Source: an uncultured Solibacteraceae bacterium
Lineage (GTDB): Bacteria > Acidobacteriota > Vicinamibacteria > Vicinamibacterales > SCN-69-37
Reading direction: 5' to 3'
Assembly (NCBI GenBank): GCA_964419785.1
Contig: CAYQRM010000136.1
Span: 5,305-69,304, forward strand
DNA length: 64,000 bases
The position numbers were made by a program, and so were the translations under genes. Each line of letters starts with the position of its first letter. Positions within the stretch are counted from its first letter, which is position 1. Shown here piece by piece: positions 1 to 60,987 of this stretch. Below the pieces are notes generated by a model that searched no databases, was not told where the DNA came from, and was given only the letters and a program-made list of their open reading frames with translations.

Positions 1-1858
1 AGTCGTCGACGCGGCGACAAGTCAACCGATCGCGGGCGCCATCGTCGTGACGAACGTTCGCGCGAACGCGGCGGGGCGTCGGGGCGGAGGTCCGGGCGCG
101 GCGGGTCCGCCCATCCAGCCCATCCGGCTCGTCACCGGTGCCGACGGCCGCTTCGTCCTGCGCGATCTGCCGAAGATGAGCGTCGCGATCACCGCGGCGG
201 CCAACGGTTATGTCAATGGCGGCGCAGGGCAGTCCCGGCCCGGCGGCGCTGCCGAGAACATCGACGTTGGCGACGGCGAGAAGATCGCCGACGTTCGCAT
301 CCTGCTGTGGAAGACGGCTGTCATCACCGGCACTGTCACCGATGATTCCGGCGAGCCCGTCGTGGGCGCGCAGGTCCGTGCGTCTCGACGCGTCGCCGTT
401 GCCGGACGCACGCGCTACAACTATGGCGCTTCCGCGACGACCGACGACCGCGGCGCGTTTCGCCTCTCCGGCCTTCCGCCCGGAGATTACGTCGTCGTCG
501 TCCCTGAGACGCAGCAGACGGTGCCGACGGCAATGTTGGACGCAGCGCTGCAGAGCGTGTCGAGTGGCACGCCGGCCGGCGCTGCGATGATGGATTTATT
601 CACCAGCGGTGCAATGGTGTTCAACGGAGGCGCCGGTAACTCGCCGCTGACCGGCGTGCGGGTGGATGACCTGATGTTCTCGACGACCAGCGGCGGCGCG
701 ACCGTGACGGCCGATGGCCGCATCCTCACGAATCCAACCGTGTACTACGCGTCAGCGTCGTCGCTCGGTCAGGCAACGGTGATCACGGTCAAGTCTGGCG
801 AAGTGCGATCGGGGATCGATTTGCCGCTGCACCTGGTGCCAACCGCGCGGATATCTGGCTTGCTGACCGCGGCCGGCGCGCCAGTCGGCGGCGTGGCGGT
901 GCGGTTGATGCCGAGCCTTCCGGACAACGGATTTGCCGGCGACGAAGTTCAGGTGGCGGCAACGTCGACGCGCCCGGACGGGACGTTCACGTTTCTTGGC
1001 GTGCCGCCCGGACAGTATTTCGTCGACGCCGTGCGGCGGCCGCGGCCCCAGATTCCTCCAGAGCTCGCGTCCAACCCAATGGTGCAGATGGCCTTCGGCG
1101 GCGGCGGAGGTGGGAGCGAGGCGCTTTACGGTGCGACGACCGTCAGCACCGACGGGCGCGATGTGTCGGACCTCGCGGTCGTCCTCACCGGCGGTGTGAC
1201 GATCAGCGGGCGCTTCGTCTTCGACGGCACGGCGACGCGGCCGGCGCCCCAGCAGATGCAGAACCTCGCAATTTCGCTGCAGTCGATCGACGGCCGGACG
1301 AATGGCCAGATGGCATTTGGGGGTTCCGGTCCACGCGTGCCGGTGGACGCCAATGGCGCTTTCAAGACGATTCCCTATCCAGCGGGCAAGTACCTCGTTA
1401 CCGCGCCGGCCGCAGGCTCGGGGTGGATTGTGCAATCGATGCTCGTGGGCGGACACGATCTGGTGCGCGAGCCACTAGAGCTGAAGGGCGAAGACATTAC
1501 CGATCTCGTCGTGACGTACACGGACAAGGTTGGACAGGTTGCAGGGACGGTGCGCGCGCCGGCCGGTTCGACGCTCAAGCCGGCGACGGTCTTTCTCTTT
1601 CCGGCGGACTACCCGGATCGTATTGCCCTAGCGGACGCTCGGTTGTTTCGCAACGCACCAGCCTCGAAAGATGGCAGCTACACCTTCGGCGGGCTTCCCG
1701 CGGGCGACTACTACGTCGCCGCCATGACCGCTGACGATGCGCCAGACAATCGCGATGCCGAATTTTTCACCGCACTCTCGCGCGGCGCCACTCATGTGAC
1801 GCTGACCGACGGCGAGCGGAAAACGCTCGACCTGCAGATCGTGAGAGTGACGAAATGA
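1..1858 (+). CDS. Carboxypeptidase regulatory-like domain repeat protein (CarboxypepD_reg, PF13620-like), 5' truncated by window edge
   Basis: Frame is open from position 2 (VVDAATSQPIAGAIV). Repeated ITGTVTDDSGEPVVGAQV / TDDRGAFRLSGLPPGDY / ISGLLT..G.PV.G modules. Confidence 0.85.
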   Translation, partial: VVDAATSQPIAGAIVVTNVRANAAGRRGGGPGAAGPPIQPIRLVTGADGRFVLRDLPKMSVAITAAANGYVNGGAGQSRPGGAAENIDVGDGEKIADVRILLWKTAVITGTVTDDSGEPVVGAQVRASRRVAVAGRTRYNYGASATTDDRGAFRLSGLPPGDYVVVVPETQQTVPTAMLDAALQSVSSGTPAGAAMMDLFTSGAMVFNGGAGNSPLTGVRVDDLMFSTTSGGATVTADGRILTNPTVYYASASSLGQATVITVKSGEVRSGIDLPLHLVPTARISGLLTAAGAPVGGVAVRLMPSLPDNGFAGDEVQVAATSTRPDGTFTFLGVPPGQYFVDAVRRPRPQIPPELASNPMVQMAFGGGGGGSEALYGATTVSTDGRDVSDLAVVLTGGVTISGRFVFDGTATRPAPQQMQNLAISLQSIDGRTNGQMAFGGSGPRVPVDANGAFKTIPYPAGKYLVTAPAAGSGWIVQSMLVGGHDLVREPLELKGEDITDLVVTYTDKVGQVAGTVRAPAGSTLKPATVFLFPADYPDRIALADARLFRNAPASKDGSYTFGGLPAGDYYVAAMTADDAPDNRDAEFFTALSRGATHVTLTDGERKTLDLQIVRVTK

Positions 1859-3756
1859 GGGGCCGACTCGCGCGGCTCTCGCTCGCCTTCGTCGCAATGT
1901 TTATGCTCGGCCTCGCTTCGTCGGCCGCCGCGCAGAGCACTCCTCCTCGCGATACAAACGCGCCTCGGGTCGGCACCGCGATCCTCTCCGGCGTCGTCCT
2001 CACCGATGAAACCTCGCCGCGACCGCTGCACCGCGCCACGGTCGTCCTGTCGTCGGGCGAGGCTCGCTTTCCGCAATCGACGATGACGGATGAGGCGGGA
2101 CGGTTTGCGTTTACGCGACTCGCGGCGGGCAATTACTCGATTGTGAGCACGAAGCCCGGCTACGTCGCGGCGTATTACGGCGCGAAGCAAGCGGGCCGCG
2201 GACCCGGCGTGCCGATCGCGGTGCTCGACGGACAGCAGGTCGCCGACGTCACGATGAGGATGATGCACGGCGGTGTGATTTCCGGAACGATCACGACGCA
2301 GTCTGGCCGGCCCGCGGAGAACATCAACGTCATGGTCTATCGCGTCGACAACATCGGCGGCGCGCGGCGGCTGTCGCTGACGACGGTGAGCGTAAACACG
2401 GACGATCGCGGGATGTATCGAGCGTTCGGTCTTGCGCCCGGCGACTACGTTGTGCAGATCGGCGGGACACTCGCATCGTTTGCGTTGAATGGTGAAGCGC
2501 GGCTGGTCACATCTGCGGAACTTCGGTGGGCGGATCAGGTCAGCGGTGCCGCAGCGATCTCGCCTCCACCGCCCGGACAAACCGTCTCGTACTCGTCCAT
2601 GTACTTTCCGGGCACGCCTGATGTGTCGTCCGCATCCATCCTCACCCTTGGTCCGGCTGAGGAGCGCGATGGCGTCGACTTCTCGCTGGCGCTGGTGCCG
2701 ACAGCGCGCTTGTCCGGCCAGGTCCTCGACGCCGACGGCCGTCCGTTTCCCGGCGCGCAGATCACGGTCGCTCCCGCGGGCCCGGCGCAGGACCTGATGA
2801 CGATGCTGAGCGGATTCCGGACGATGAGCCGGTCGATGCCCGACGGGAATTTTGCTGTGACGGGCGTCACGCCTGGACCGTACACGATCAGCGTTCGCGC
2901 AACTCCACCCTCCGCCGGCCGCGGCGGATCGCCAGATGCCGCGATGATGGCCGCTGCTCGCATGCTCGGCGGTGTGGGGGGCAATGCTCCATCGTTGTGG
3001 GCGAACGCCGACGTCACCGTCGACGGGCGCGACATGTCCGACATCATCTTGCGTCTGCAACCCGGCATGACGGTGACGGGCAAGCTCGTGTTCGAGTCTT
3101 CATCCACGCCGCCGCCAGACGCGACGCGCGCGCGCGTCGCGTTGATGTCGCCGCCGACGGGATCATCGGCGATCGAATTGACGGCGTCGATGCTCACCGG
3201 CACGATGCAGGCGACAATCGCGCCCGACGGCACGTTGACGGTGCTCGGCGTCGCCCCGGGCAAGTATCGTGTGACGACGGGCGGGCTGGCGATGTTGATG
3301 GGTCAGAACGCCGTCGCTGCGGGCTGGACGATGAAGTCGGCGATGCTCGGCGGGAAGGACGTCGCCGACGCTCCGTTCGAAGTGCGTCCGAACGAGGACG
3401 TCACCGATCTCGTCGTGACCGTGACGGATCATCCGAGCGAGCTGTCGGGCACGGTGAAGGACCGCGCCGGCCGGCCGGCGCCAGGATTTCCGATCGTGGT
3501 CTTTTCGACGGACCGCGCGTACTGGACGGTGGGATCGCGTCGCGTCCAGCAGGCCCGACCGTCGAGCGACGGTCGGTACAAGATGACCGGGCTGCCCGGC
3601 GGCGAGTACTACGTGTGCGCGCTCACCGATTTGGATCAGAATCAGCTCTACGATCCGGCGTTTCTCGAATCACTCGTGTCGGGATCGTTCAAGATCGCGT
3701 TGACCGACGGCGAGAAGAAGACGCAGGACCTCACGCTCGCGTCCGGCGGGACATGA
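1855..3756 (+). CDS. Secreted carboxypeptidase regulatory-like domain repeat protein (paralog of the upstream gene)
   Basis: Signal peptide ending SSAAA|Q; four modules such as TDEAGRFAFTRLAAGNY, TDDRGMYRAFGLAPGDY, SSDGRYKMTGLPGGEY; 4-bp overlap with upstream stop. Confidence 0.85.
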   Translation: MRGRLARLSLAFVAMFMLGLASSAAAQSTPPRDTNAPRVGTAILSGVVLTDETSPRPLHRATVVLSSGEARFPQSTMTDEAGRFAFTRLAAGNYSIVSTKPGYVAAYYGAKQAGRGPGVPIAVLDGQQVADVTMRMMHGGVISGTITTQSGRPAENINVMVYRVDNIGGARRLSLTTVSVNTDDRGMYRAFGLAPGDYVVQIGGTLASFALNGEARLVTSAELRWADQVSGAAAISPPPPGQTVSYSSMYFPGTPDVSSASILTLGPAEERDGVDFSLALVPTARLSGQVLDADGRPFPGAQITVAPAGPAQDLMTMLSGFRTMSRSMPDGNFAVTGVTPGPYTISVRATPPSAGRGGSPDAAMMAAARMLGGVGGNAPSLWANADVTVDGRDMSDIILRLQPGMTVTGKLVFESSSTPPPDATRARVALMSPPTGSSAIELTASMLTGTMQATIAPDGTLTVLGVAPGKYRVTTGGLAMLMGQNAVAAGWTMKSAMLGGKDVADAPFEVRPNEDVTDLVVTVTDHPSELSGTVKDRAGRPAPGFPIVVFSTDRAYWTVGSRRVQQARPSSDGRYKMTGLPGGEYYVCALTDLDQNQLYDPAFLESLVSGSFKIALTDGEKKTQDLTLASGGT

Positions 3757-3832: not shown

Positions 3833-4618
3833 TTGATGCGAATCGCGCGGCTTGGCAGCATCGCGCTCGTCGCGCTCGTGACGATGAGAATTCCTGCGCT
3901 CAATGCGCGCGTGCAGAACATGCCCGCCGTCTACGGCTACGAGGTCGTGCATACCTACCCGCACGATCCGGGCGCGTTCACGCAGGGACTGGTCTTCGTC
4001 GACGGCGTGCTCTACGAGAGCACCGGCCTTAACGGCCACTCGAGTCTGCGCAAGGTCAAGCTCGAAACCGGCGAGGTGTTGCAGCGACGCGAGGTCGACG
4101 CGCAGTACTTCGCGGAGGGCCTCACCGAGTGGCGGGGCACGCTGATTCAGATCACGTGGCAGACGCACGTCGGCTTCGTCTACGACCTCGCGACGTTCGC
4201 GCCGAAGCGCACGTTCAACTACACGGGCGAAGGTTGGGGCCTCACGCATGACCGCACGCGACTCATCATGAGCGACGGCACGTCGTCGCTGCGCTTTCTC
4301 GATCCAGTGACGCTCGCCGAGACGGGACGCGTGACGGTTACCGATCGCGGCCAGCCCGTCACGCGACTCAACGAGCTCGAGGTCGTCAACGACGAGATCT
4401 TCGCCAACGTCTGGGGCACCGATTCGGTTGTCCGCATCGCACCAGCCACCGGCCGGGTCACAGGCTGGATCGATTTCACCGGTCTCTTGCCGAGCGCCGA
4501 TCGCACGCCCTCGACCGACGTCTTGAACGGCATCGCGTATGACGCGAAAGGCGATCGCTTGTTCGTCACCGGCAAGCAGTGGCCCAAACTGTTCGAAGTT
4601 CGGTTGATTAGGAAGTAG
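3833..4618 (+). CDS. Glutaminyl-peptide cyclotransferase (type I QC, Glu_cyclase_2 family)
   Basis: YPHDPGAFTQGL, LYESTG, FAEGL, QITW, GEGWGL, LNELE, VLNGIAYD, TGKQWP motifs; N-terminal hydrophobic segment. Confidence 0.92.
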   Translation: MMRIARLGSIALVALVTMRIPALNARVQNMPAVYGYEVVHTYPHDPGAFTQGLVFVDGVLYESTGLNGHSSLRKVKLETGEVLQRREVDAQYFAEGLTEWRGTLIQITWQTHVGFVYDLATFAPKRTFNYTGEGWGLTHDRTRLIMSDGTSSLRFLDPVTLAETGRVTVTDRGQPVTRLNELEVVNDEIFANVWGTDSVVRIAPATGRVTGWIDFTGLLPSADRTPSTDVLNGIAYDAKGDRLFVTGKQWPKLFEVRLIRK

Positions 4619-4667: not shown

Positions 4668-6029
4668 ATGACCTCTCCGCTCACGCGCCGCTTCGGCCTC
4701 GTCGAAGCCACGGCGCTCAACATGATCAACATGATCGGGATCGGTCCGTTCATCACGATCCCGTTGCTCATGACGGCCTTGGGCGGACCGCAGGCAATGC
4801 TCGGCTGGATCGTTGCGCTCATCATCGTCATCACCGATGGCATGGTGTGGAGCGAGCTCGGCGCGGCGTTGCCGGGATCGGGCGGATCGTTCGGCTATCT
4901 GCGCGAGGCGTTCGGGCCGGAGTCGCTCGGACGTCTGATGGCGTTTCTGTTCGTCTGGCAGTTCGTGCTGAGCGGGCCGCTCGAGATCGCGTCCGGCTAC
5001 ATCGGCTTCGCGAAGTATCTGTCCTACCTCTGGGCGGGGTCGACGACGACGCGGGTGTTCTTCGTGGCGGCGGCGGTCGGCCTCGTCAACATCGTCTTGC
5101 TCTATCGACGTGTGACCTCAGTCGCGAAGCTCACCGTCGCGCTCTGGGCCGGCGTGCTGTTGGCGACCCTGTCGGTGATCGTGACGGGCGCGTCGCATTT
5201 CGATCCGAAGGTCGCGTTCGATTTCCCGCCTGGCGCGTTCCGCTTCTCACTCGGGTTTCTCGTCGGTCTCGGCGCCGCGACGCGCATCGGCGTGTACGAC
5301 TACCTTGGCTACTACGACGTCTGCTACGTCGGCGACGAGGTGAAAGACCCCGGCCGCGTGATTCCGCGATCGATTCTCATCAGCACGGTCGCGGTCGCCG
5401 TGATCTATGTCGCGATGAATCTGTCGATCGTCGGCGTCGTACCGTGGCGCGAATTCGTGCCCGCTGACGCCCATCCTGGCTCCGACTTCGTCGTGTCGCT
5501 CTTCATGGAGCGCACGTCTGGACCTGCGGTGGCCCGCGCGTTCACGGTGCTGGTGCTGTGGACGGCGTTCGCGTCCGTCTTTGCGCTGCTCTTCGGCTAC
5601 TCGCGCATTCCGTACGCGGCCGCGCGCGACGGCTACTTCTTTCGCACGTTCGCTCGGCTCCATCCGACTGGCGGATTCCCGGCCGTGTCGCTCGTCGTGC
5701 TCGGCGTGATGTCGATTCTGGCAAGCGCGCTCTCGCTCGATACGGTCATCGAGACGCTCATCGCGACGCGAATTCTCGTGCAGTTTGTCGGGCAGATCGG
5801 CGGATTGATCCTGCTGCGTCGCCGGCGGCCTGACCTCCCGCGCCCGTACCGCATGTGGTGGTATCCGATTCCGGCGCTCATCGCGCTTGCCGGCTGGATC
5901 TTCATCTTCGCCACGACGGGCGCCTTCGTCATCGGGTTCAGCCTGGTCCTTCTGGCCGTCGGCGTCGCCAGTTTTCTGGTATGGTCCCGACGACTGCAGC
6001 AATGGCCATTCGCCCGGAAGCCCGCCTGA
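4668..6029 (+). CDS. APC-family amino acid/amine permease
   Basis: NMIGIGPF, ELGAALPGSGG, EVKDPGRVIPRSI, SRIPYAAARDG motifs; about 12 hydrophobic segments. Confidence 0.9.
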   Translation: MTSPLTRRFGLVEATALNMINMIGIGPFITIPLLMTALGGPQAMLGWIVALIIVITDGMVWSELGAALPGSGGSFGYLREAFGPESLGRLMAFLFVWQFVLSGPLEIASGYIGFAKYLSYLWAGSTTTRVFFVAAAVGLVNIVLLYRRVTSVAKLTVALWAGVLLATLSVIVTGASHFDPKVAFDFPPGAFRFSLGFLVGLGAATRIGVYDYLGYYDVCYVGDEVKDPGRVIPRSILISTVAVAVIYVAMNLSIVGVVPWREFVPADAHPGSDFVVSLFMERTSGPAVARAFTVLVLWTAFASVFALLFGYSRIPYAAARDGYFFRTFARLHPTGGFPAVSLVVLGVMSILASALSLDTVIETLIATRILVQFVGQIGGLILLRRRRPDLPRPYRMWWYPIPALIALAGWIFIFATTGAFVIGFSLVLLAVGVASFLVWSRRLQQWPFARKPA

Positions 6030-8641
6030 CCGGTACGGCCGCCTGGATCGGCCTGGCGCTCACGCTCGTCTTCGTCTCGACGGCTGGCGCGCAGCCAGCT
6101 GCGCAAATGCTTGCGCGCGACTGGCGCCTTCAGTCGTCCGCGCAGATTCATGACACCGGCGCGACGATCTCCACCACCGCCTACAAATCCACCGGCTGGT
6201 ACCCGACGGCGGTGCCCGCGACGGTGCTGGCGGCGCTCGTCGCCAACAAGGTGTATTCCGATCCGTACTTCGGGATGAACCTGCGCGCGATTCCCGGCAC
6301 GTCGTATCCGATCGGCCGCAATTTCTCCGCCCTGCCGATGCCCGACGACAGTCCATTTCGCGTGTCGTGGTGGTACCGCACCGAGTTCAGTTTGACGAGC
6401 AACGCCTCAGGCTCGCACGTCGCGCTGCACTTCGACGGTCTCAACTATCGCGCGAACGTGTGGCTCAACGGCCGGCAGATTGGACGCGCGACCGACATCG
6501 CCGGGATGTACCGCCTGTTCGAGCTCGACATCACCGACACCGTCCGGCGCGACGGACCGAACGCCCTCGCGGTCGAAATCTTTCCTCCCGAGCCGAGCGA
6601 CCTCGCCTGGACGTGGGTCGACTGGAATCCGGCGCCGCCGGACAAGAACATGGGCCTCTGGCGGCCGGTGTCGGTGACGACGAGCGGAGACGTGATGCTG
6701 CGGAGGCCGCACGTGGTGTCGAATGTCGCGGCGTCGCGCGCGAGCGCCGACGTGACGATCTCCGCCGAGCTCACGAATCTCGCGAACGAGTCGCGGCTGG
6801 CGCGACTGAGCGGCACGCTGGGCACGGTCGCGTTCGATCAGGCGATCACGCTCAACGCGCACGAAACGCGCGTGGTCAGCTTCTCGCCGGCGATTTATCC
6901 GGCGCTGCGCGTGCAAGGCGCGAAGTTGTGGTGGCCGATCGGCATGGGCGCGCCGAACCGGTACGACCTCACGCTCGACGCGAGCGTCGGCGGCAAGCTG
7001 TCGGACCGCGCGTCCATGAAAATCGGCATCCGCGAGATTACCTCCGAGCTCACGCCGACTGGCGGACGTCTGTTCAAGGTCAACGGCCGGCCGATTCTCA
7101 TTCGCGGCGGCGGCTGGGCGCCGGACATGCTGCTGCGACCGGATCCCGATCGGCAGGACGCCGAGCTGCGCTACGTCCGCGAGATGGGGCTCAACACGAT
7201 TCGGCTCGAGGGCAAGCTCGAGGACGACCGGTTTTTTGATCGCGCCGACGAGTCGGGGATCCTCGTGCTCGCTGGCTGGTGCTGCTGCGATCGATGGGAG
7301 CAATGGTCGCAGTGGAGTGATGACACACACGCGATTGCCGCCGCATCGCAGACGGATCAGATCTGCCGGCTGCGCGCGCATCCGAGCATGCTCGCCTGGA
7401 TGAACGGCAGCGACAATCCGCCGCCGCCCGACGTCGAGCGCGTGTACGTCGGCATCCTCAATCGCCTGCACTGGCCGAATCCGTTCGTCTCGTCAGCGAC
7501 CGCCAAGAAGACCACCGTGACGGGTGATTCCGGCGTGAAGATGAACGGCCCCTACGACTGGGTGCCGCCGAACTACTGGCTCGAGGACGACTCGCGCGGC
7601 GGCGCGCACGGGTTCGCGACCGAGATCAGTCCTGGCGCGGCCGTGCCGCCGGTCGAATCGCTCAAACGCATGCTCCCGGCTGATCACCTCTGGCCGATTG
7701 ACGATGTCTGGAACTACCACGCGGGCGGGGGACAATTTCGCACGATTCAAACGTTCACCGACGCGCTGACGAAGCGGTACGGCGCGCCGTCGGGCATCGA
7801 CGACTACGCGATGAAAGCGCAGGTGCTCTCGTACGAAGGCGAGCGCGCGATGTTCGAGGGCTACGCGCGCAACAAGTTTACGTCGACCGGTGTCATCCAG
7901 TGGATGCTCAACAACGCGTGGCCGTCGATGATTTGGCACCTCTACGATTACTACCTGCGGCCCGGCGGCGGCTACTTCGGCACCAAGAAAGCCTGCGAGC
8001 TGGTGCACGTGCAGTACTCGTACGACGATCGGTCGATCGTTGTCGTCAACAACACGGCCGCGCCGGTCGCGGGCGTCGTCCTGATTCACGTTGTGAATCT
8101 CGATGGCGCCGTGCAGCAGTCGCGCACCGTCGACGTCAGCGCTCCGCCCGACTCGAGCACGCGCGTGTTCACGCTCGATCCGCCGGCGATGCCGGTGTAC
8201 TTCTTGGATCTTCGTCTCAACGCGCCTGGCGGCCAGCCGATCAGCACGAACTTCTACTGGCTCGCGGCAAGAATGGACGAGCTCGACTGGGCCAAATCGA
8301 CCTGGTACGGCACGCCCGTCAGAAGTTACGCGGACATGACGTCGCTCAAAGATCTTCGACAGACGACGGTCACCGCCACGGTCACCCATCGTCGTCGTGC
8401 TGGCGCGGGAGAAGGCGAGACGCACGTCGCGCTCGCGAATACCGGACCGTCGATCGCGTTCTTCGTTCGTCTGCAGGTCACGAAAGGGTCGGGCGGCGAC
8501 GAGATCCTGCCGGCATTCTGGCAGGACAACTATGTCAGCCTGATGCCCGGAGAGAAGCGGGATATCGCAGTCACGTACCGGCTCGCGGATCTTGGCAGCG
8601 CGCAGCCGGCGGTCAAGATCAGCGGCTGGAACGTCCACTAG
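6002..8641 (+). CDS. csxA: Secreted GH2 exo-beta-D-glucosaminidase (CsxA-like)
   Basis: HFDGLNYRANVWLNG, IRGGGW, GLNTIRLEGK, GWCCCDRWE, NGSD (Asp acid/base), FATE (nucleophile), QWMLNNAWPS. Start moved to ATG 6002 (signal peptide ..STAGA|Q). Confidence 0.85.
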   Translation: MAIRPEARLTGTAAWIGLALTLVFVSTAGAQPAAQMLARDWRLQSSAQIHDTGATISTTAYKSTGWYPTAVPATVLAALVANKVYSDPYFGMNLRAIPGTSYPIGRNFSALPMPDDSPFRVSWWYRTEFSLTSNASGSHVALHFDGLNYRANVWLNGRQIGRATDIAGMYRLFELDITDTVRRDGPNALAVEIFPPEPSDLAWTWVDWNPAPPDKNMGLWRPVSVTTSGDVMLRRPHVVSNVAASRASADVTISAELTNLANESRLARLSGTLGTVAFDQAITLNAHETRVVSFSPAIYPALRVQGAKLWWPIGMGAPNRYDLTLDASVGGKLSDRASMKIGIREITSELTPTGGRLFKVNGRPILIRGGGWAPDMLLRPDPDRQDAELRYVREMGLNTIRLEGKLEDDRFFDRADESGILVLAGWCCCDRWEQWSQWSDDTHAIAAASQTDQICRLRAHPSMLAWMNGSDNPPPPDVERVYVGILNRLHWPNPFVSSATAKKTTVTGDSGVKMNGPYDWVPPNYWLEDDSRGGAHGFATEISPGAAVPPVESLKRMLPADHLWPIDDVWNYHAGGGQFRTIQTFTDALTKRYGAPSGIDDYAMKAQVLSYEGERAMFEGYARNKFTSTGVIQWMLNNAWPSMIWHLYDYYLRPGGGYFGTKKACELVHVQYSYDDRSIVVVNNTAAPVAGVVLIHVVNLDGAVQQSRTVDVSAPPDSSTRVFTLDPPAMPVYFLDLRLNAPGGQPISTNFYWLAARMDELDWAKSTWYGTPVRSYADMTSLKDLRQTTVTATVTHRRRAGAGEGETHVALANTGPSIAFFVRLQVTKGSGGDEILPAFWQDNYVSLMPGEKRDIAVTYRLADLGSAQPAVKISGWNVH

Positions 8642-8674: not shown

Positions 8675-9235
8675 ATGGTGAGCTTGTCAGCGCTCTGGTT
8701 GCCCGTCCTGCTCTCGGCCGTCATCGTGTTCGTCGCGAGCTCGATCATTCACATGGTGCTCAGCTATCACAAGAACGACGTCAAGAAGGTTCCGCGCGAG
8801 GAGGACGTGATGGGCGCGCTGCGGCCGTTCAACCTTCCGCCGGGCGACTACGCGATGCCACGGCCCGCGTCGATGAAGGACATGGGCACTCCGGCGTTCA
8901 AAGAAAGAATGACGAAGGGGCCGGTCGTGTTCATGACGGTATTGCCGTCAGGGCCGTTCGAGACAGGCAAGCAACTTGGACAGTGGTTCGTGTACTTGAT
9001 CGTGATCAGTGTCTTCGCCGCGTACGTCGCCTCGCGCGCGCTGCCCGCCGGGTCGGACTATCTGGCCGTCTTCCGGTTCGCAGGGACGACCGCGTTCATC
9101 GGGTACGCGATGGCGATGCCCCAACAGTCGATTTGGTATCGCCGCAACTGGGGCACGACGCTGCTCTTGATGTTCGACGGGCTGCTGTTCGGGTTGCTGA
9201 CTGGCGGAACGTTCGGGTGGCTGTGGCCGCGGTAG
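8675..9235 (+). CDS. Conserved hypothetical membrane protein
   Basis: GAGGAGG RBS upstream; four hydrophobic segments; gene-like composition. Confidence 0.75.
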   Translation: MVSLSALWLPVLLSAVIVFVASSIIHMVLSYHKNDVKKVPREEDVMGALRPFNLPPGDYAMPRPASMKDMGTPAFKERMTKGPVVFMTVLPSGPFETGKQLGQWFVYLIVISVFAAYVASRALPAGSDYLAVFRFAGTTAFIGYAMAMPQQSIWYRRNWGTTLLLMFDGLLFGLLTGGTFGWLWPR

Positions 9236-9236
9236 G

Positions 9237-9469
9237 CATGAAGGACGTGAAGGGAATGAAGGACATGTAGTAAGAGAACCGCCCATCGATCTGACTGGCC
9301 GCCGGAGGCGGCCCAGGCGATTGGGCGAGGACACCTGGGAGCAAGAGCCAATAAACTGCCACGAGGCTCTTGTTCCCAGGTGCCCTCGCCCAATCGCGCC
9401 CGGCAAAGCCGGGTCGTCAGATCGATGGGCGGTTCCTTCATGAACTTCATTTCCTTCACGATCTTCATG
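9237..9469. repeat. 233-bp branched palindrome, copy 1 (REP/MITE-like)
   Basis: Terminal 9-mer arms catgaaggacgtgaagggaatgaag / cttcatttccttcacgatcttcatg; basal stem gaaccgcccatcgatctgac / gtcagatcgatgggcggttc; side hairpins ggccgcc-gga-ggcggcc and cccggc-aaa-gccggg; apical stem with loop aataaactgccacga. Confidence 0.9.
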
Positions 9470-9478
9470 CATCCCTGA

Positions 9479-9940
9479 TTGCAGTATCTGCACACCCTCG
9501 CCCATCCCTCCGTGCAATCGCCGCAATTCCGCACGGCGCGCCGCTTGCAGACGCGTTTCGACGTGCCGCTGATCGTCAGTCCCGTCGTGCAACGAATCAT
9601 CGGAGCCGCGATTACGGTTCATCGCGCTCTTGGGCCCGGGTTGTTCGAGTCGGTCTACGACCGCTGTCTGGAGTACGAGTTGCACAAGCAGGGCTTGACG
9701 ATGGCGCGTCAGGTGGCGCTTCCGCTCATTTACGACGGCCTTTCGATACCGTGTGCATATCGCGCTGACTTCGTCGTGCAGAACGAGGTGCTCATCGAGA
9801 TCAAGGCCGTCGATCGGCTGCTGCCGGTGCACGACACGCAAGTCCTCACGTACTTGCGGTTGTCCGGCGTTCGGCAGGGACTGCTCTTGAACTTCAACGT
9901 GCCGCGGCTGGTGGACGGGATCAGGAGCTTCCTTATGTAG
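9479..9940 (+). CDS. GxxExxY protein (PD-(D/E)XK superfamily, PDDEXK_3-like); true start may be the GTG before PLIVSP
   Basis: HRALGPGLFESVY (GxxExxY), YRADFVV..EVLIEIKAV (D..ExK), QVLTYLRLSG..GLLLNF. Confidence 0.92.
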   Translation: MQYLHTLAHPSVQSPQFRTARRLQTRFDVPLIVSPVVQRIIGAAITVHRALGPGLFESVYDRCLEYELHKQGLTMARQVALPLIYDGLSIPCAYRADFVVQNEVLIEIKAVDRLLPVHDTQVLTYLRLSGVRQGLLLNFNVPRLVDGIRSFLM

Positions 9941-9941
9941 A

Positions 9942-10174
9942 CATGAAGGACGTGAAGGGAATGAAGAACATGAAGTAAGAAGAACCGCCCATCGATCTGA
10001 CTGGCCGCCGGAGGCGGCCCAGGCGATTGGGCGAGGCCACCTGGGAACAAGAGCCTCGTGGCAGTTATTGGCTCTTGTTCCCAGGTGCCCTCGCCCCATC
10101 GCGCCCGGCGAAGCCGGGCCGTCAGATCGATGGGCGGTTCCTTCATGACCTTCATTTCCTTCATGACCTTCATG
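9942..10174. repeat. 233-bp branched palindrome, copy 2 (direct repeat of 9237-9469 with the central loop inverted)
   Basis: Same arms and side hairpins in the same order; loop tcgtggcagttatt is the reverse complement of the copy-1 loop apart from one A. Confidence 0.9.
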
Positions 10175-20719: not shown

Positions 20720-21055
20720 ATGGCCAAGAACTCGAAAAGTGACTTGTTGCAGGGCACCCTCGACCTGCTGATCCTCAAGACTCTGGCCCTCGGCTCGCAG
20801 CACGGGTGGGGCATCTCTCAGCGCATCCGTCAGATCTCCCAGGACGTGTTGCAGGTCAACCAGGGATCGCTCTATCCCGCCTTGCACCGGCTCGAAGAGC
20901 AGGGCTGGATCGCCTCGGAGTGGGGCACGTCGGAGGCCAATCGGCAAGCGAAGTTCTACAAGCTCACACGCGCCGGCGAGCGCCAGCTCGCGCGCGAGAC
21001 GGCGAGCTGGGATCAAATCTCAGCGGCCGTCGCACGAATCCTTCAGACCTCATGA
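20720..21055 (+). CDS. padR: PadR-family transcriptional regulator (acidobacterial type)
   Basis: LLQGTLDLLILKTL, HGWGISQRI, QGSLYPALHRLE..GWI..EWG, AKFYKLT..G; AGGAG RBS. Confidence 0.95.
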   Translation: MAKNSKSDLLQGTLDLLILKTLALGSQHGWGISQRIRQISQDVLQVNQGSLYPALHRLEEQGWIASEWGTSEANRQAKFYKLTRAGERQLARETASWDQISAAVARILQTS

Positions 21056-21079
21056 CCTAGCGGAAAGGACCATCCGATC

Positions 21080-23746: not shown

Positions 23747-23748
23747 GG

Positions 23749-23862: not shown

Positions 23863-23882
23863 AACGCCTGGCTTCTCGGCCT

Positions 23883-45734: not shown

Positions 45735-45768
45735 AAAGGGCGCTGCCTTCTGGCAGCGCCCTTTTTTT
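45735..45768. terminator. Bidirectional intrinsic terminator
   Basis: aaa-GGGCGCTGCC-ttct-GGCAGCGCCC-ttttttt between convergent genes. Confidence 0.9.
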
Positions 45769-47922: not shown

Positions 47923-48693
47923 TCACCTCTCGACCTTCGCGATGACGACGGCGAACTTGTTCCGTCCACGGCCTTCGAGGTAGGCGAGCTTCTGTCCATC
48001 CGCAGTCCACGCCGGGAGGACGACCGACTTCGTGCCATCGATCTTCTGCCGAGCTCCGGTCGAGTCCATGATCACCAGTCGCCCGGTCGACTTCTCCGCG
48101 TACGCGATCATGTGGCTGCCGGCCGGACCCCACCCGAACGTGAGCCCTGGAACAATCGCGTGATTGACCCATTCGCCGACGATTTCGCCCTTGAGAAGCA
48201 TGCTGTAGACGGTGCCATTCGTGGACGCATTCGCCGCGGCCGTCACTGATTCGACCGACGCCCCATTGGCGGTGCCATCCGTGCCGCCTCTCGCGAGATC
48301 GCCGCCCATCGGAATGGCCGTCGCGGACGCAATTCGCTTCTCCGTGGAGATCTCGATCTTGAACGCAGCGTCGTCCGGCGCGGTCTGCCCCGACTTCCAG
48401 GACCAATAGCCAATCGCCCAATCAGGCTCAGCGTTGACTTTCTGGAATGTGCCGCCCGTGGCCGGCATCACGTAGTGGTACGAATCTTTCGGCAGGGCGC
48501 GCTGATCCTCGGTGACCGTCTGCAGATACAGCTGTGTGCCGTCTGGCGACCACGCGAGCTGCCTGACCTGGCTGCCTTTCATCTTTCCAAGATCGAACTG
48601 CGCGATCTCGCTCGGGGTGAGTTTCAACTGTGTCGCGGGGCTCTGTTGGGCGACGAGCGCGGTCGATGCCAGGACGAACACGAAAGCTTTCAT
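47923..48693 (-). CDS. Secreted hypothetical protein with TolB/WD40-like repeats
   Basis: AAGGAG RBS; signal ..ALVA|Q; LAWSPDGTQLY, PAWTADGQKLAY. Confidence 0.7.
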   Translation of the reverse strand: MKAFVFVLASTALVAQQSPATQLKLTPSEIAQFDLGKMKGSQVRQLAWSPDGTQLYLQTVTEDQRALPKDSYHYVMPATGGTFQKVNAEPDWAIGYWSWKSGQTAPDDAAFKIEISTEKRIASATAIPMGGDLARGGTDGTANGASVESVTAAANASTNGTVYSMLLKGEIVGEWVNHAIVPGLTFGWGPAGSHMIAYAEKSTGRLVIMDSTGARQKIDGTKSVVLPAWTADGQKLAYLEGRGRNKFAVVIAKVER

Positions 48694-53583: not shown

Positions 53584-55788
53584 TCAGCGTCCGAACTTCG
53601 CTTTCGCTTCCGATCTCACGCTCGCGGCGCGATCCGGTTGTCCGAACATATCCCACAAATGTGCAGCGGTCTCGTACGCCATCGGCGACGGCGAGACCTT
53701 CAGCATCTCCGCGATCTCGCGCTCCACGTCGTCGGGCCGGTTGGTGGACGCGTAGAGCATGGCCAGGCCGGAGCGCGCGCGCATGCTGCTTGGGTAGATC
53801 GAAAGCTCTTCACGAAACATCCGCTCGGCTTCGGGATATCGCTCGAGTCGCGCGAGCGTGTCGCCGACGTAAAAGCGGAGATCGGCCGGCTGCATCGTCC
53901 GCGCGGCCCATTCGTCGCGCGCTTTCATCAGGAGCGGCAAGGCCTCCTGATACTGCCCTTGGTTGTACGCGATCATGCCGCGGATATACGTGGGCATCGG
54001 CAACGTCGGGTCGGCCTGAGCCGCGAGATCGGCTTGTCGCTGGGCCTCGGCGTAATCCTTCTTCGCGAGCGCGATGTTGGCCAATGTCTGATGCGCGCGG
54101 CCTGGTGACGTCTTGAGGACGAGCTCGGCGTGTGCTCGCGCCTCGTCGTACCGCCGAAGCGTCAGCAGCGCCGCCGCGGCGCCGAGCAAGCCGCTCGGCT
54201 CTTCGGGCTTCAGGCGGATCACCTGTTTGTAGGCATCAAGCGCCTCGGCTTCGCGACCGAGCCGCGTCAGCACGACCGCGTACTGGACCCAGACGTCGGT
54301 CATGTCCGGGTTTGATTTGAGCAAGTCGCGGAAGCGATCGGCGGACGCCGCGAATTGGCGATCGTCGAGCAGCGTCACCGCCTCACGATACTGCTTGAGC
54401 ACCGGCGCCATCTCTTTCGGATCCGGCAGAGAGGACCCGGGCCGACTGGCGCCGGCCGAAAACTGCGTGCCGATATATCCAAGCGCGGCCAACCGCTCGC
54501 GATCTTCGGCCGATACCGCCGACGGTGCGTCAATGTCGCGTCCAGCCGTCAGCGTTTCGAGACCCGACCGCATGCCCGCCGCCGTCTGCGGGTGATCGGC
54601 GACGACGTTCGCGCGCTCGTGGGGATCGTCTCGAAGATCGTAGAGCTCGTCGTGCGGCGCCTTGATGAATTTGTACCGCTCGTCAGTGAGCGAGAGCAGC
54701 TCGCTCCAGCCAAAGTGATAACGCGGATAGAGCGCCTCCGAGTAGACGCCCTCCGCCGCTGGATGGCCGGTCGCGCGCAGCAAGGGCGTCAGGTCGCGCC
54801 CGCGCAGGCCCCGGGGCGCCGTGAGGCCGGCGAGCGTCGCGATCGTGGGGAACAGATCGATGTGTTGCACCAGGTCCGCGACGCGACGGCCCCCAGACTT
54901 TCCGCCCGGCAGCTTCATCAGCCACGGTACGTGGATGGTCTCTTCGTAGACGAACAATCCGTGTTCGTACTCGCCGTGATCGCCCAGGCCCTCGCCGTGA
55001 TCGGAGAGCAGCACGACGGTCGCGTTCGAGTACCAACCTCGGCGTTTGAGATCGACCAAGAGCTTGCCGACGATCTCGTCGGCATACGCGATCTCGCCGT
55101 CGTAGGGCGAGAGCGATGAGAATCGTTGTGGCGGCGTGTATGGCGTGTGCGGCTCGTAGATGTGAAAGAAGAGGAAGAAACGATCGTCGGAGAGCGTATT
55201 GAGCCATGCTTCCGCAGCCGCGAGCGTCTGCTCGCCAGGGCGCTGGACCTGACCGAGCGACACGTCGGACGCGGCGGCCGGCAGTTCCGCGTTGTAGACG
55301 TCGAATCCGCGTCCGATGCCGGTTTCCGGGCGCAGCACGTACGCGGACACGAACCCTCCGGCTTTGTAGCCCGCCTGATGGAAACGTTCCGCGAGCGTCG
55401 GTTTATCGGGCGCGAGCGTGAAGCCGAGATTGTCGCGCACGCCATGTTCGAACGGCAGCAGTCCCGTCAGGATCGACGTGTGCGCCGGCAGTGTCTGAGG
55501 CGCGTGGCTGTACGCGCGCTCAAAGAGCACGGACTCTCTGGCCAAGGCATCAATCGTCGGCGTCTGACCGTTCGCATAGCCATAGACGGGGAGGTGATCG
55601 GCCCGCAAGGTGTCGATCGAGATCAGCACGACGGCCCCGGGACGCACGGGCCGCACGAACGGCCAGACGACGACACTCGCGCCGACGATGAGGCCGACGA
55701 TCGCCAGCGCCAACAGCACGCGCGGCCATCGCGAACTCTTTGGATTCTGGCGAGGTTGGGAGCGCGCGGAGCGCGGCGATCGAGCCAT
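53584..55788 (-). CDS. Membrane-anchored sulfatase-like protein with TPRs (paralog); Thr at the nucleophile position
   Basis: SIDTLRAD, PQTLPAHTSILTG, YEPHTPY, LSDHGE; start reassigned to ATG 55788. Confidence 0.88.
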   Translation of the reverse strand: MARSPRSARSQPRQNPKSSRWPRVLLALAIVGLIVGASVVVWPFVRPVRPGAVVLISIDTLRADHLPVYGYANGQTPTIDALARESVLFERAYSHAPQTLPAHTSILTGLLPFEHGVRDNLGFTLAPDKPTLAERFHQAGYKAGGFVSAYVLRPETGIGRGFDVYNAELPAAASDVSLGQVQRPGEQTLAAAEAWLNTLSDDRFFLFFHIYEPHTPYTPPQRFSSLSPYDGEIAYADEIVGKLLVDLKRRGWYSNATVVLLSDHGEGLGDHGEYEHGLFVYEETIHVPWLMKLPGGKSGGRRVADLVQHIDLFPTIATLAGLTAPRGLRGRDLTPLLRATGHPAAEGVYSEALYPRYHFGWSELLSLTDERYKFIKAPHDELYDLRDDPHERANVVADHPQTAAGMRSGLETLTAGRDIDAPSAVSAEDRERLAALGYIGTQFSAGASRPGSSLPDPKEMAPVLKQYREAVTLLDDRQFAASADRFRDLLKSNPDMTDVWVQYAVVLTRLGREAEALDAYKQVIRLKPEEPSGLLGAAAALLTLRRYDEARAHAELVLKTSPGRAHQTLANIALAKKDYAEAQRQADLAAQADPTLPMPTYIRGMIAYNQGQYQEALPLLMKARDEWAARTMQPADLRFYVGDTLARLERYPEAERMFREELSIYPSSMRARSGLAMLYASTNRPDDVEREIAEMLKVSPSPMAYETAAHLWDMFGQPDRAASVRSEAKAKFGR

Positions 55789-55877
55789 CGGCACGCGAAT
55801 GGGCGGACTCGGCCAGTATAGTCCACGCTTCTCGTGTGGTTCTTGAGTTCCGCCGGAGTCCGCACGAATTCTTCCAG

Positions 55878-55898
55878 TTGAGACGCGAATTGTCTCAA
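55878..55898. promoter_or_regulatory. Palindrome TTGAGAC-N7-GTCTCAA in a divergent intergenic region (candidate operator)
   Basis: Perfect 7-bp arms, read directly. Confidence 0.35.
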
Positions 55899-56071
55899 GA
55901 GCTCTAAGGTGCAGGTAGTGGGTCAGTTTAAACGGGAACGAACGTTCCCCACGTCGCGCCGCCGATCGGTGATGCGTTGATGCGCGAGGGCAGCGAACAT
56001 CACCGCGGCGAAGAGCCACGTATACCCGCTCGGAGTCTGGCGACGCCCGGCCGTCGGCGCTAGCGTAGGAA

Positions 56072-57019
56072 TTGCCCATGTCATCACGCGGTCTCTGGCC
56101 GGTCGCTTGTACGGTGATGCTCTCGCTCTCCGTCGCGCATGGGCGTGCGCTCCCGGCGGCCCAAGGCGTCTCGCTCTCCGAGCTGCTCCAACGCTCGGCT
56201 TCATCTCTTGAGGACTTCGACACGAAGTTTTCTGCGGTGATCTCGCAAGAGTCCTACAAGCAGACCGAGACGAGGCTCGAGGGCCAGCCCGCGCAGCCGC
56301 GCACCTACAACCGACAGACAAAGTCGCAGATTCTTTTTGTCAACGGTGGCGGTACGTGGCTCTGCTTTCGCGATGTCTTCGAGGTCGACGGTAAAGCATT
56401 GCCTGACCATGTCGCGCGGTTCGCGCGGTTGTTGGAGAGCCCTGCTACGGCGTCTGTTGACGCGGGATCGCTTGCGACTCACATCACGTCGGAGAGCGCC
56501 AGATATAACCTCGGCGGCGTCGCACGGAATTTCAATCTGCCTACGATGGCGCTGACTTTTCTCAGACGCGCCAACCAGGAGCGGTCAAAGTTTCACGACG
56601 ACGGCGCCGAGCGCAAAGGTGACACCGCAGAGACGCACATTGTGTCGTTCTCGGAAAAACGACGCCCGACACTCGTCCGCGACGCCGCCAATCACGACGT
56701 GCCTGCAACGGGCCGATTCTGGATCGACACGTCTGGCCGAGTCGATCGCACGGAACTGAAGCTCGAGACCGAGGACGGTGTTCGCGCGACCGTCACGGTG
56801 GAGTACGGACCACAACCCAAGCTGGACATCTTCGTACCCCTTTCCATGCACGAGCAGTACGAACAATCAATCGTGGACAAGATCGACGCGCACGCTGAGT
56901 ACTCAGGATTTGTCGTTCCCAATGTGACGGTGGACCTAAGCGGTTTCAAAGAGGGCGCAGGCCTCACAGGCCGTGGCCGCGGAGGCGCTCCGCACAACCC
57001 AGCCAGAAGCCATAGATGA
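56072..57019 (+). CDS. Secreted hypothetical protein (acidobacterial family commonly near VWA genes)
   Basis: Signal ..LPAA|Q; FRDVFEVDGK, ESARYNLG...RNFN.PT.AL.FL, GRFWID..G.V.RTEL, A.YS.F. Confidence 0.7.
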   Translation: MPMSSRGLWPVACTVMLSLSVAHGRALPAAQGVSLSELLQRSASSLEDFDTKFSAVISQESYKQTETRLEGQPAQPRTYNRQTKSQILFVNGGGTWLCFRDVFEVDGKALPDHVARFARLLESPATASVDAGSLATHITSESARYNLGGVARNFNLPTMALTFLRRANQERSKFHDDGAERKGDTAETHIVSFSEKRRPTLVRDAANHDVPATGRFWIDTSGRVDRTELKLETEDGVRATVTVEYGPQPKLDIFVPLSMHEQYEQSIVDKIDAHAEYSGFVVPNVTVDLSGFKEGAGLTGRGRGGAPHNPARSHR

Positions 57020-58362: not shown

Positions 58363-58377
58363 GCGGCGGAGAATACG

Positions 58378-58569: not shown

Positions 58570-60987
58570 ATGGGGCTCGGCGGGCGCCGGATCATCGTCT
58601 CGATCGCGTGTGCGTTCGCGACCGCGGGGCTTGGCTTCGGCGCCCAAACACCCAGTCAACCTGCCGCATCGCCGTCGACATCCGCCGGCTTCGATCTGCC
58701 GCGCCTCGCGAGGATGGACGACGTCATCGCCGAGGCGATTGCCGCGAAGAAACTGCCCGGTGCGGTCGTCGTCGTCGGACGCGGCGACACCGTCGTGTGG
58801 CGCAAGGCGTACGGATCGCGAGCCCTCGTCCCGGCGGTTGAGCCGATGACGCTCGACACGATCTTCGACATGGCGTCGCTCACGAAAGTCGTCGCGACGA
58901 CGCCCGCCGTGATGCAGCTCGTTGAAGACGGCAAGGTTCGCCTCTCCGATCCGGTCGCGCAGTTCATTCCCGAGTTCGGCAAGTACGGCAAAGAGCGTGT
59001 GACCGTGCGCGATCTGCTGACGCACACGTCGGGGCTGCGTCCCGATCTCGATCTGGGCGACGACTGGAGCGGACACGACGCGGCGATTGCGCTCGCGAGC
59101 GACGAAGTACTCTCGTCGAGCCGGCGCTTCACCTACAGCGACGTCAATTTTCTTCTGCTTGCGGAAATCGTCGCGCGCGTGACGAAGCAGCCGTTCGACG
59201 AATACGTCCGCGCGCACGTCTTCACGCCGCTGGGCATGCGCGAGACGATGTTCAAGCCGCCGGCCTCGCTTTTGCCGCGCATCGCGCCGACCCAGGCGTG
59301 CGATCCAAAGGACAAGTCGTGCGGCGGCGAAACCATGCTGCGCGGCGTCGTACACGACCCGACGTCGCGGCGCATGGGCGGAGTGGCCGGGCATGCGGGT
59401 CTCTTCAGCACGGCGGCCGACCTCACGATCTACTGCCGCATGCTGCTGGGCGACGGGGCGATCGGGACGACCCGCGTGCTCGCGCCGCTGACGGTCGCGC
59501 GCATGACATCGCCCGCGACGCCCGCGACCGAGCCGAACGTGCGCGGTCTCGGTTGGGATCTCGACTCGTCGTACTCGGCCAACCGCGGCGAGCTCATGCC
59601 GCTCGGATCGTTCGGCCACACGGGGTTTACCGGGACGTCGATCTGGATCGATCCCGCGACGCGCGTCTTCATCATTTTTCTGTCCAACCGCGTGCACCCC
59701 GACGGCACCGGTGACGTGACGCCTCTCCGCGCCAAAGTCGCGACGATCGTTGCCTCCTCGCTCACGGGCGAGTCGAGCGATGCCCTGCGCTCGCTCGCGT
59801 TCAGCCGTCAGACCTTTGCGTCGCAGACAACGGCCGTCGCTGAAGCGCCGATGCCGCCGGTCGAAACGGGTATCGACGTGCTCCGCGCGAGCGGATTCGC
59901 GGCGCTCAAGGGGCTGAAGGTCGGCCTGCTCACGAACCACACCGGGCGCGCGCGCGACGGCGAGGCGACGATCGATCTCTTCGCGGGGGCGCTGACCGTG
60001 ACGCTCGTGTCGCTGTTCAGTCCCGAGCACGGCATCCGCGGCATCCTCGACGCATCCGTGCCGTCGACGACCGACGAGAAGACCGGCCTGCCGATTCACT
60101 CGCTGTACGGCGCGACCGAGCGCCCAACGGCTGACATGTTCGCCGGCATCGATGCGGTCGTGATCGATCTTCAGGACGTTGGCGCGCGCTTCTACACGTA
60201 CATGACGACGATGGCATACGTGATGGAGGAAGCGAGCAAGCGGAAGATCAAAGTGTTCGTGCTCGATCGGCCGAACCCGATCGGCGGGGTGCAGATCGAA
60301 GGGCCCGCGCTCGACGCGTCGGAAGTAGGCTTCACCGGCTATCTTCCCGCAATGCCAATCCGCCACGGCATGACGATCGGTGAGCTCGCGCGGCTGTTCA
60401 ACGGGGAGAAGAAGATCGGCGCGGATCTGACCGTCATCGCGATGAAGAACTGGCGGCGCGACGAATGGTTCGACGAGACCGGCCTCGCGTGGGTCAATCC
60501 ATCTCCCAACATGCGCACGCTCTACGCGGCGACGCTGTATCCGGGCCTGGGCGCGTTCGAGCAGACGAACATCTCGGTCGGACGCGGCACCGACACGCCG
60601 TTCGAGCAGATCGGCGCGCCGTGGATCGACGGCAATCGGCTCGCTGATGCGCTGAACGCGCGTCATCTCGCCGGGGTGCGTTTCTATCCCGTTCGATTCA
60701 CGCCGACGGCCGCGACGTTCAGCGGCGAAGATTGCCAAGGCGTCTTCATCGTCGTCACGGACCGAACGGCCGTGCGGCCGGTGCGTGTGGGTGTGGAAAT
60801 CGCGTCAGCGCTCGTGAAGCTGTTTCCGGGGCGCCTGCATGTCGGCATGGCGCACAAGCTGTTCGGATCCGAGGACGGTCTGACGCGCATCACCGCCGGG
60901 GAGGACCCGGCCGCAATCGCTGCCACGTGGGCAGCCGCCGAAGCGCGGTGGCGCCAGCTGCGCGCGAAGTATTTGTTGTATCAATGA
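58570..60987 (+). CDS. namZ: Secreted fusion: serine hydrolase (beta-lactamase-related, AmiE-like) plus exo-beta-N-acetylmuramidase NamZ (DUF1343)
   Basis: N-half ASLTK (SxxK), LLTHTSG, YSD, FGHTGFTG; C-half LLTNHTG, FSPEHG, SLYG, DLQDVG.RFYTY, VLDRPNP, RHGMT.GELA, PSPN, GRGT..PFE. Confidence 0.88.
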   Translation: MGLGGRRIIVSIACAFATAGLGFGAQTPSQPAASPSTSAGFDLPRLARMDDVIAEAIAAKKLPGAVVVVGRGDTVVWRKAYGSRALVPAVEPMTLDTIFDMASLTKVVATTPAVMQLVEDGKVRLSDPVAQFIPEFGKYGKERVTVRDLLTHTSGLRPDLDLGDDWSGHDAAIALASDEVLSSSRRFTYSDVNFLLLAEIVARVTKQPFDEYVRAHVFTPLGMRETMFKPPASLLPRIAPTQACDPKDKSCGGETMLRGVVHDPTSRRMGGVAGHAGLFSTAADLTIYCRMLLGDGAIGTTRVLAPLTVARMTSPATPATEPNVRGLGWDLDSSYSANRGELMPLGSFGHTGFTGTSIWIDPATRVFIIFLSNRVHPDGTGDVTPLRAKVATIVASSLTGESSDALRSLAFSRQTFASQTTAVAEAPMPPVETGIDVLRASGFAALKGLKVGLLTNHTGRARDGEATIDLFAGALTVTLVSLFSPEHGIRGILDASVPSTTDEKTGLPIHSLYGATERPTADMFAGIDAVVIDLQDVGARFYTYMTTMAYVMEEASKRKIKVFVLDRPNPIGGVQIEGPALDASEVGFTGYLPAMPIRHGMTIGELARLFNGEKKIGADLTVIAMKNWRRDEWFDETGLAWVNPSPNMRTLYAATLYPGLGAFEQTNISVGRGTDTPFEQIGAPWIDGNRLADALNARHLAGVRFYPVRFTPTAATFSGEDCQGVFIVVTDRTAVRPVRVGVEIASALVKLFPGRLHVGMAHKLFGSEDGLTRITAGEDPAAIAATWAAAEARWRQLRAKYLLYQ

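Follow-up and report, generated by a model that had tools for sequence, protein, structure and literature searches.

Glutamine at the mature N-termini of exported proteins, and three exported glutaminyl cyclases, in an uncultured acidobacterium

The Q-rule of the Bacteroidetes describes a preference for glutamine as the first residue after the signal peptide, Gln(+1), with a published mean of 71% (Bochtler et al. 2018, PMC5837995). In this phylum the link between Gln(+1) and glutaminyl cyclase (QC) is experimentally established, and in Porphyromonas gingivalis periplasmic pyroglutamate was shown by experiment to block the N-terminus against aminopeptidases (PMC5837995, PMC10653852). A plant-type QC is able to replace the P. 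gingivalis enzyme, PgQC (PMC10653852). The papers on the rule are framed around oral pathogens and type IX secretion (PMC5837995, PMC10653852), and Szczesniak et al. 2023 place it "exclusively in the Bacteroidetes phylum" (PMC10653852). The taxa tested by Bochtler et al. 2018 were Bacteroidetes, Chlorobi, Spirochaetes, Chlamydiae and Cyanobacteria, with no Acidobacteriota among them, and high Q-values outside the classical Bacteroidetes were reported for Ignavibacterium album (77%) and Chloroherpeton (55%) (PMC5837995). A literature search returned no paper connecting Acidobacteria, QC and pyroglutamate. Here we describe a 64,000-nucleotide stretch of DNA from an uncultured acidobacterium, referred to below as the window, in which a type I (beta-propeller) QC gene at 3836-4618 lies among genes for exported proteins that are nearly all predicted to begin with Gln after cleavage.

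The window (contig C136:5305-69304) belongs to a 4.78-Mb assembly of 309 contigs with 66% GC content. Its cyclase gene has its nearest relatives in Acidobacteriota-labelled metagenome-assembled genomes, mostly Vicinamibacterales or Vicinamibacteria, and the gene content, with TonB-dependent receptors led by CarboxypepD_reg domains and proteins of the acidobact_VWFA/TPR type, fits a Vicinamibacterales-like placement; the genome is clearly that of a member of the Acidobacteriota. At sequence level, roughly 50-75% of the exported proteins other than lipoproteins are predicted to start with Gln once the signal peptide is removed. We consider it probable that this organism has an acidobacterial Q-rule of about the strength known from Bacteroidota, with three exported QCs of which at least one would cyclise the exposed Gln to pyroglutamate. 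By analogy with the described systems, pyroglutamate capping, published as exclusive to the Bacteroidetes, is very probably also at work here. What is new is the extension of the Q-rule to the phylum Acidobacteriota; the system is a known one, and no new mechanism is involved.

Gln(+1) in the window and across the genome

Every candidate N-terminus in the window was translated and read directly, and cleavage was assigned by the -3/-1 rule. Gln(+1) was found in 10 of 11 securely called signal peptides of the signal peptidase I (SPase I) type, at sites ending in Ala or Gly before Gln (cleavage is marked below by an arrow). The chance of at least 10 Gln among 12 at a base rate of 15%, the level of the negative controls, is P = 3e-7, and the probability is similarly small for 10 of 11, when only the securely called signals of the SPase I type are counted. 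One of the ten Gln(+1) proteins belongs to an open reading frame (ORF) that enters the window from its upstream side (PRLAA↓QQRG). Others, encoded on the forward strand, are a secreted protein at 1855-3756 in which CarboxypepD_reg is repeated four times (signal peptide 1855-1932, with Gln(+1) encoded by CAG at 1933-1935, SSAAA↓QSTPP), for which a model blind to the +1 residue chose the same site; a GH2 exo-beta-D-glucosaminidase-like enzyme at 6002-8641 (signal peptide 6002-6091, Gln(+1) codon 6092-6094, STAGA↓QPAAQ); a peptidase of the S9 prolyl-oligopeptidase family at 10231-13053 (signal peptide 10231-10332, Gln(+1) codon 10333-10335, TIVA↓QRGAPP); a TonB-dependent receptor consisting of CarboxypepD_reg, Plug and barrel at 42776-45715 (signal peptide 42776-42847, Gln(+1) codon 42848-42850, LASA↓QVFTG, posterior 0.99); and a fusion of a beta-lactamase fold with a NamZ exo-muramidase at 58570-60987 (signal peptide 58570-58644, Gln(+1) codon 58645-58647, GFGA↓QTPS).

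The remaining Gln(+1) proteins are encoded on the reverse strand. They are a GH29 alpha-L-fucosidase at 13113-14477, whose signal is of the twin-arginine translocation (Tat) type (TRREFL; signal 14409-14477, Gln(+1) codon 14406-14408, TSRA↓QATM); two secreted proteins combining acidobact_VWFA with TPR, one at 45767-47911 (signal peptide 47846-47911, Gln(+1) codon 47843-47845, TVLA↓QQQTPP; TIGR03436, 7.6e-52) and one at 48725-51361 (signal peptide 51284-51361, Gln(+1) codon 51281-51283, PLLA↓QAPQTP, posterior 0.98; TIGR03436, 3.3e-43); and, between them, a small exported protein with a weak PD40/TolB-like repeat at 47923-48693 (signal peptide 48649-48693, Gln(+1) codon 48646-48648, ALVA↓QQSP). 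The sole SPase-I-type exception in the window, already named as such in the preliminary description, is an exported, Xaa-Pro dipeptidase-like amidohydrolase at 26456-27682 on the reverse strand (LAHA↓PHAS). The SPase II substrate encoded at 34042-34692, also on the reverse strand, is a lipoprotein (VAAAS↓CSSG) and, as expected, exempt from the rule. The cyclase's own N-terminus reads ALNA↓RVQN or is an uncleaved anchor, and has no Gln(+1). A further case listed in the preliminary description, LPAA↓Q in the ORF at 56072-57019 (forward strand, 315 aa, TTG start), is doubtful and was left out of the count: the ORF was not called by the gene finder, lacks a coding signal, at a log-odds of -0.004 per codon and a third-position GC content of 0.71, and overlaps the non-coding upstream tail of a reverse-strand ORF at 53584-56223, and it is probably no gene.

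Across the genome, cleavage sites were taken from our own gene caller and signal-peptide model rather than from SignalP. A codon-log-odds caller predicted 4054 genes, which together span 90% of the DNA, and a detector of n- and h-regions with a transmembrane filter gave 810-996 candidates, to which a segmentation model built from h-region composition, a five-column position weight matrix (PWM) and mature composition was applied. The final estimator, used for all genomes, combined a fixed PWM with a learned +1 composition and bootstrap intervals. Gln was by far the commonest +1 residue among 810 candidates. Maximum likelihood, in which the +1 composition started flat and was then learned, placed Gln at 49% (bootstrap 45-52), Cys at 9% and every other residue at 8% or less, or Gln at about 54% with Cys set aside. 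When the site was picked blind to +1, Gln reached 33% (265/810) and the runner-up 7%; at a posterior above 0.7 the share was 47% (99/211). Fully unsupervised expectation-maximisation (EM) gave 53% at the most probable (maximum a posteriori) sites and 71% at a posterior above 0.8. The highest value, 76% (26/34), came from the SPase-I-type proteins led by CarboxypepD_reg, whose first domain follows the signal peptide closely and thus pins the cleavage site. A plain -3/-1 heuristic blind to +1 gave 14-21% Gln, with more Gln spread over +2 to +5, and was kept as a lower bound; this scatter over +1 to +5 arises because the c-regions here are rich in Ala. Some estimators were set aside: with a log-odds PWM, EM wandered into the h-region; segmental EM lacking a +1 term slid by four residues, whereby "A-Q" was absorbed into the PWM, and was unusable as an estimate; and per-genome EM on 50-70 sequences was unstable and was replaced. 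The earlier claim that nearly every exported protein carries Gln(+1) therefore holds within the window, while for the whole genome half to three quarters is the fairer statement.

The background share of Gln in the proteome is 3.1%, and the 33-76% obtained at +1 with our own predictors is not near it. Shuffling the residues that follow the h-region, that is, the c-regions and mature N-termini, and running the identical pipeline gave 9% Gln(+1). Among organisms used as negative controls, a 400-kb sample of Dokdonella (70% GC, positive for type I QC) gave 16% (2-27) with Ala as the commonest residue, and a 350-kb sample of Escherichia coli K-12 gave 13% (3-23). At sites picked blind to +1, Gln was present in 15/100 pooled negatives and in 265/810 here (Fisher p = 1e-4). 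The dipeptide AQ is unenriched in protein bodies (observed/expected 0.9). Four residues past the h-region the Gln frequency climbs to 14%, up from 1-3%, and it falls to 4-5% by +16; signal peptides predicted to be followed by Gln have a median of 25 residues. In 34 orthologue pairs from the same genus, identity peaks at -1 (0.81) and +1 (0.74) against 0.42-0.66 in the flanks, which hints at selection acting on the -1/+1 junction. The Gln(+1) bias is real, is tied to the cleavage site and is not an artefact of composition. The preliminary description was thus right to see a Q-rule-type bias outside the Bacteroidota, the genome being clearly acidobacterial and the bias being genome-wide and of Bacteroidetes-like size.

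Exported glutaminyl cyclases of types I and II

The gene at 3836-4618 (forward strand) encodes a protein of 260 aa that was correctly recognised at the outset as a type I, or plant/bacterial, QC with a beta-propeller fold. It matches PF05096 (Glu_cyclase_2) with an E-value of 1.3e-101 and 339.7 bits, against a cut-off of 22.3, over profile positions 13-249 of 249. Its matches in the PDB are 3MBR from Xanthomonas (4e-84), 3NOL from Zymomonas (8e-81), 2FAW from papaya (5e-58) and 3NOK from Myxococcus (1e-47), each over about 226 residues, and by eye it is about 60% identical to the solved Xanthomonas enzyme. The motifs FTQGL, YFxEGL, the W of QxTW, EGWGL, LNELE, ANVW and VTGK are kept. The active-site residues of papaya QC, reported by Wintjens et al. 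2006 to be F22, Q24, E69, W83, W110, N155, W169 and K225, were mapped by pairwise alignment with 2FAW, and all eight positions are identical in the window cyclase. An n-region and an h-region precede the propeller and form an N-terminal hydrophobic export signal (MRIARLGSIALVALVTMRIPALNA↓RVQN), for which the posterior of a cleaved signal as opposed to an uncleaved anchor is 0.54; no lipobox Cys is present at this N-terminus. An export signal is also predicted in 59 of 63 acidobacterial type I QC homologues, 11 of which have a lipobox. Homology and predicted export mark the gene product as a genuine type I glutaminyl cyclase that is exported. Its neighbours are conserved within the genus only, and a search among them for an operon partner conserved outside the genus found none.

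Two type II (M28-like) QC genes, both intact, lie outside the window, which brings the genome to a total of three exported QCs. One, on contig C260 at 13265-14179 (reverse strand), encodes 305 aa with a signal peptide that itself ends in A↓Q (TLTA↓QASKF). The other, on contig C200 at about 8990-9951 (forward strand), is an intact paralogue with an N-terminal membrane anchor and 62% identity to the first. The best PDB matches of the C260 protein are QCs (7d18, 1.6e-39; the Tf/PgQC structures 6qro/6qql, about 1e-22; human 2afm, 6e-15); nearly all of its 42 matches are QC or QC-like, and the first clear aminopeptidase, 6hc6, appears at 1.6e-14. The motifs GHYDT, GASD, FDGEEA, DM(I/V)G and DDH(L/I)PF are kept in the type II QCs, and from these matches and motifs both genes are assigned as type II glutaminyl cyclases. 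No NCBIfam model naming them was found, so automatic annotation would probably label them M28 peptidases. A C15 pyroglutamyl peptidase (PF01470) was not found in the source genome (G000) or in the related genomes G004, G019, G034, G038 and G040, a result that is neutral for the proposed Q-rule; the Dokdonella control carries one.

Since a plant-type QC can replace PgQC, the window enzyme would in principle be competent to cap the exported proteins. SPase I, together with the processing of Tat substrates, would expose Gln as the mature N-terminus, and one or more of the three QCs would cyclise it to pyroglutamate in the periplasm. The pyroglutamate may then block the N-terminus against aminopeptidases and so stabilise the proteins, as in P. 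gingivalis.

Cyclase distribution in relatives and competing explanations

Of 41 genomes assigned to the organism's order, 23 have type I QC, 32 have type II and 35 have at least one QC, and all six genomes of the genus carry type I. Of 121 genomes across the phylum, 37 have type I and 42 have type II-like genes. Four genomes (G026, G032, G034 and G038) that are 97-100% complete contain neither QC type even at lenient thresholds; G034 (one contig, 97% complete) and G038 (100% complete) gave no PF05096 hit at E <= 10 and no type II homologue above generic M28 similarity. Relatives were sampled as 0.4-0.8 Mb blocks and run through the same pipeline, with a length-based gene caller for G040 and E. 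coli, the GC3-seeded caller (seeded on third-position GC content) being unsuited to the 50%-GC G040. Gln(+1) was 41% (30-52; n=64) in G004, of the same genus and with both QC types, 43% (31-58; n=68) in G019 with type II only, 25% (11-43; n=32) in G040 with type I only, and 40% (30-50; n=126) and 26% (12-39; n=32) in G034 and G038 with neither. At 63 loci that surround type I QC genes in a range of Acidobacteriota it was 51% (38-61; n=95). By eye, about 8/10 clean non-lipoprotein signals of G040 read A↓Q, and in G034 the CarboxypepD_reg-led proteins sampled did so in 3/3. A 319-aa M28 protein of G019 was rejected as a type II QC, its PDB matches being aminopeptidases only; a true type II QC homologue is present elsewhere in that genome. 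G040 is a 2.8-Mb single-contig genome with 50% GC in an order otherwise at 66-69% GC.

Type I QC loci labelled Proteobacteria showed almost no Gln(+1). Around type I QC genes of Chloroflexota (loci L015, L020, L031, L038, L056, L057, L066, L067 and L078) nearby signal peptides are almost all of the lipoprotein type, with Cys(+1); at least one of these QCs is itself a lipoprotein, and no Gln(+1) pattern is visible.

That the bias is an artefact, produced by picking sites before Gln by eye or by a 66%-GC composition that favours Ala-Gln, is extremely unlikely and is largely refuted. Ala-rich c-regions do make sites ambiguous, and the simplest +1-blind heuristic recovered only its 14-21% Gln, smeared over the residues downstream, but with the segmentation model blind to +1 Gln still came out on top, about five-fold over the next residue; shuffled sequences and the 70%-GC Dokdonella stayed at 9% and 16%, the latter with Ala on top, and AQ was unenriched in protein bodies while the domain-anchored CarboxypepD_reg family reached 76%. 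The preliminary description held that the lineage caps most of its secretome by means of the beta-propeller enzyme of the window, and of this the Gln(+1) bias and the exported type I QC stand. The enzyme is full-length, exported and a close homologue of characterised QCs with its mapped active-site residues conserved, it occurs in every genome of the genus, and enzymes of its type work in Bacteroidetes that follow the Q-rule and are able to take the place of PgQC (PMC10653852). However, the same genome holds two type II QCs, type II is the commoner family order-wide (32/41 against 23/41), and the type I gene has no conserved neighbours outside the genus. The bias also does not track the beta-propeller QC, because Gln(+1) stands at 43% in G019, a genome devoid of type I, and at 40% and 26% in G034 and G038, which lack both types. 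The window QC is neither the only candidate nor the best conserved QC, and we regard its being the enzyme that caps the secretome as unlikely on balance.

Several observations weigh against an acidobacterial Q-rule served by these cyclases. Gln(+1) estimates vary from 33% to 76% by method, with crude predictors of our own and negative controls at 12-18%. Dokdonella has a type I QC and about 16% Gln(+1), and therefore a QC gene alone predicts nothing. The QC-null G034 and G038 keep their Gln(+1), and therefore the bias can exist in genomes with no recognisable QC. In such relatives it could reflect inertia after a recent loss of QC, a third cyclase, or QC-independent selection for Gln. It is rather doubtful that the rule truly persists in complete genomes devoid of both families (G034, less clearly G038) through a third cyclase or because something other than enzymatic capping selects for Gln, such as a P1' preference of signal peptidase or slow spontaneous cyclisation in slow growers. 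That Gln(+1) is generally kept for reasons of this kind, or by an unrecognised third cyclase, with the known QCs as accessories, appears more improbable still. The figures from G034 and G038, with the 3/3 A↓Q termini of G034, speak for it; against this, the QC-null sample consists of two genomes at 0.4-0.8 Mb each, G038 lies below the QC-positive genomes, recent QC loss would give the same picture, 35 of the 41 relatives have at least one QC, and the Gln(+1)-QC link is experimentally established in Bacteroidetes (PMC5837995, PMC10653852). We favour a Q-rule in which at least one of the three exported QCs would act on the exposed Gln.

Genome context and comparison with known systems

Other features of the window are noted here. 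The protein encoded at 58570-60987 (forward strand) is a single exported chain in which a serine beta-lactamase/PBP-like (penicillin-binding protein-like) domain (residues 50-384) is joined to a complete NamZ exo-beta-N-acetylmuramidase (NamZ_N and NamZ_C, residues 451-804), an arrangement that suggests a peptidoglycan-scavenging enzyme. At 20720-26408 and 31022-33442 there are three proteins of about 800-890 aa that, judged from N-terminal sequence, resemble the duplicated FtsX/MacB-like permeases of acidobacteria; a small PadR-like regulator gene (20720-21055) precedes the first of them.

Finding the rule at equal strength in a soil acidobacterium, and also across 63 loci of other Acidobacteriota, points to a convergent or much older way to stabilise exported proteins, and capping may be useful in protease-rich environments. 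Proteomic searches in Acidobacteria should include pyroglutamate N-termini, Gln(+1) could inform signal-peptide predictors for the phylum, and heterologous expression of acidobacterial enzymes may require a cyclase. The two cyclase types, unrelated to each other, are patchily distributed, and close relatives with type I, type II or no QC and a similar Gln bias amount to a natural experiment on whether the enzyme is necessary.

The window QC aligns over its full length with the type I QCs of Xanthomonas campestris (3MBR), Zymomonas mobilis (3NOL/3NOM), Myxococcus xanthus (3NOK) and papaya (2FAW/2IWA). To our knowledge, no Q-rule has been reported for Xanthomonas, Zymomonas, Myxococcus or papaya. 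A related gammaproteobacterium that also has a type I QC, Dokdonella, shows about 16% Gln(+1). The C260 and C200 proteins find their best matches in the bacterial type II QCs, namely TfQC (6QRO), PgQC (6QQL), the Bacteroides/Parabacteroides enzymes 4FUU/3TC8, and 7D18, but unlike these they are not lipoproteins, the first having a cleavable signal peptide and the second a membrane anchor.

The closest described system is that of P. gingivalis with PgQC (PG2157). As there, Gln follows the SPase I site in most exported non-lipoproteins (49-76% here, depending on the method), one or more periplasm-facing QCs are encoded, and lipoproteins are exempt. In contrast to the Bacteroidetes Q-rule, the host phylum is Acidobacteriota, a single genome encodes three QCs of both structural types, the QC of the window is not a lipoprotein, some acidobacterial relatives keep the bias while lacking a recognisable QC, and the rule is here known from sequence alone. 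Ignavibacterium and Chloroherpeton likewise point to some occurrence of the rule beyond the Bacteroidetes, but both belong to the FCB (Fibrobacteres-Chlorobi-Bacteroidetes) group, which is Bacteroidota in GTDB and to which the Acidobacteriota are unrelated.

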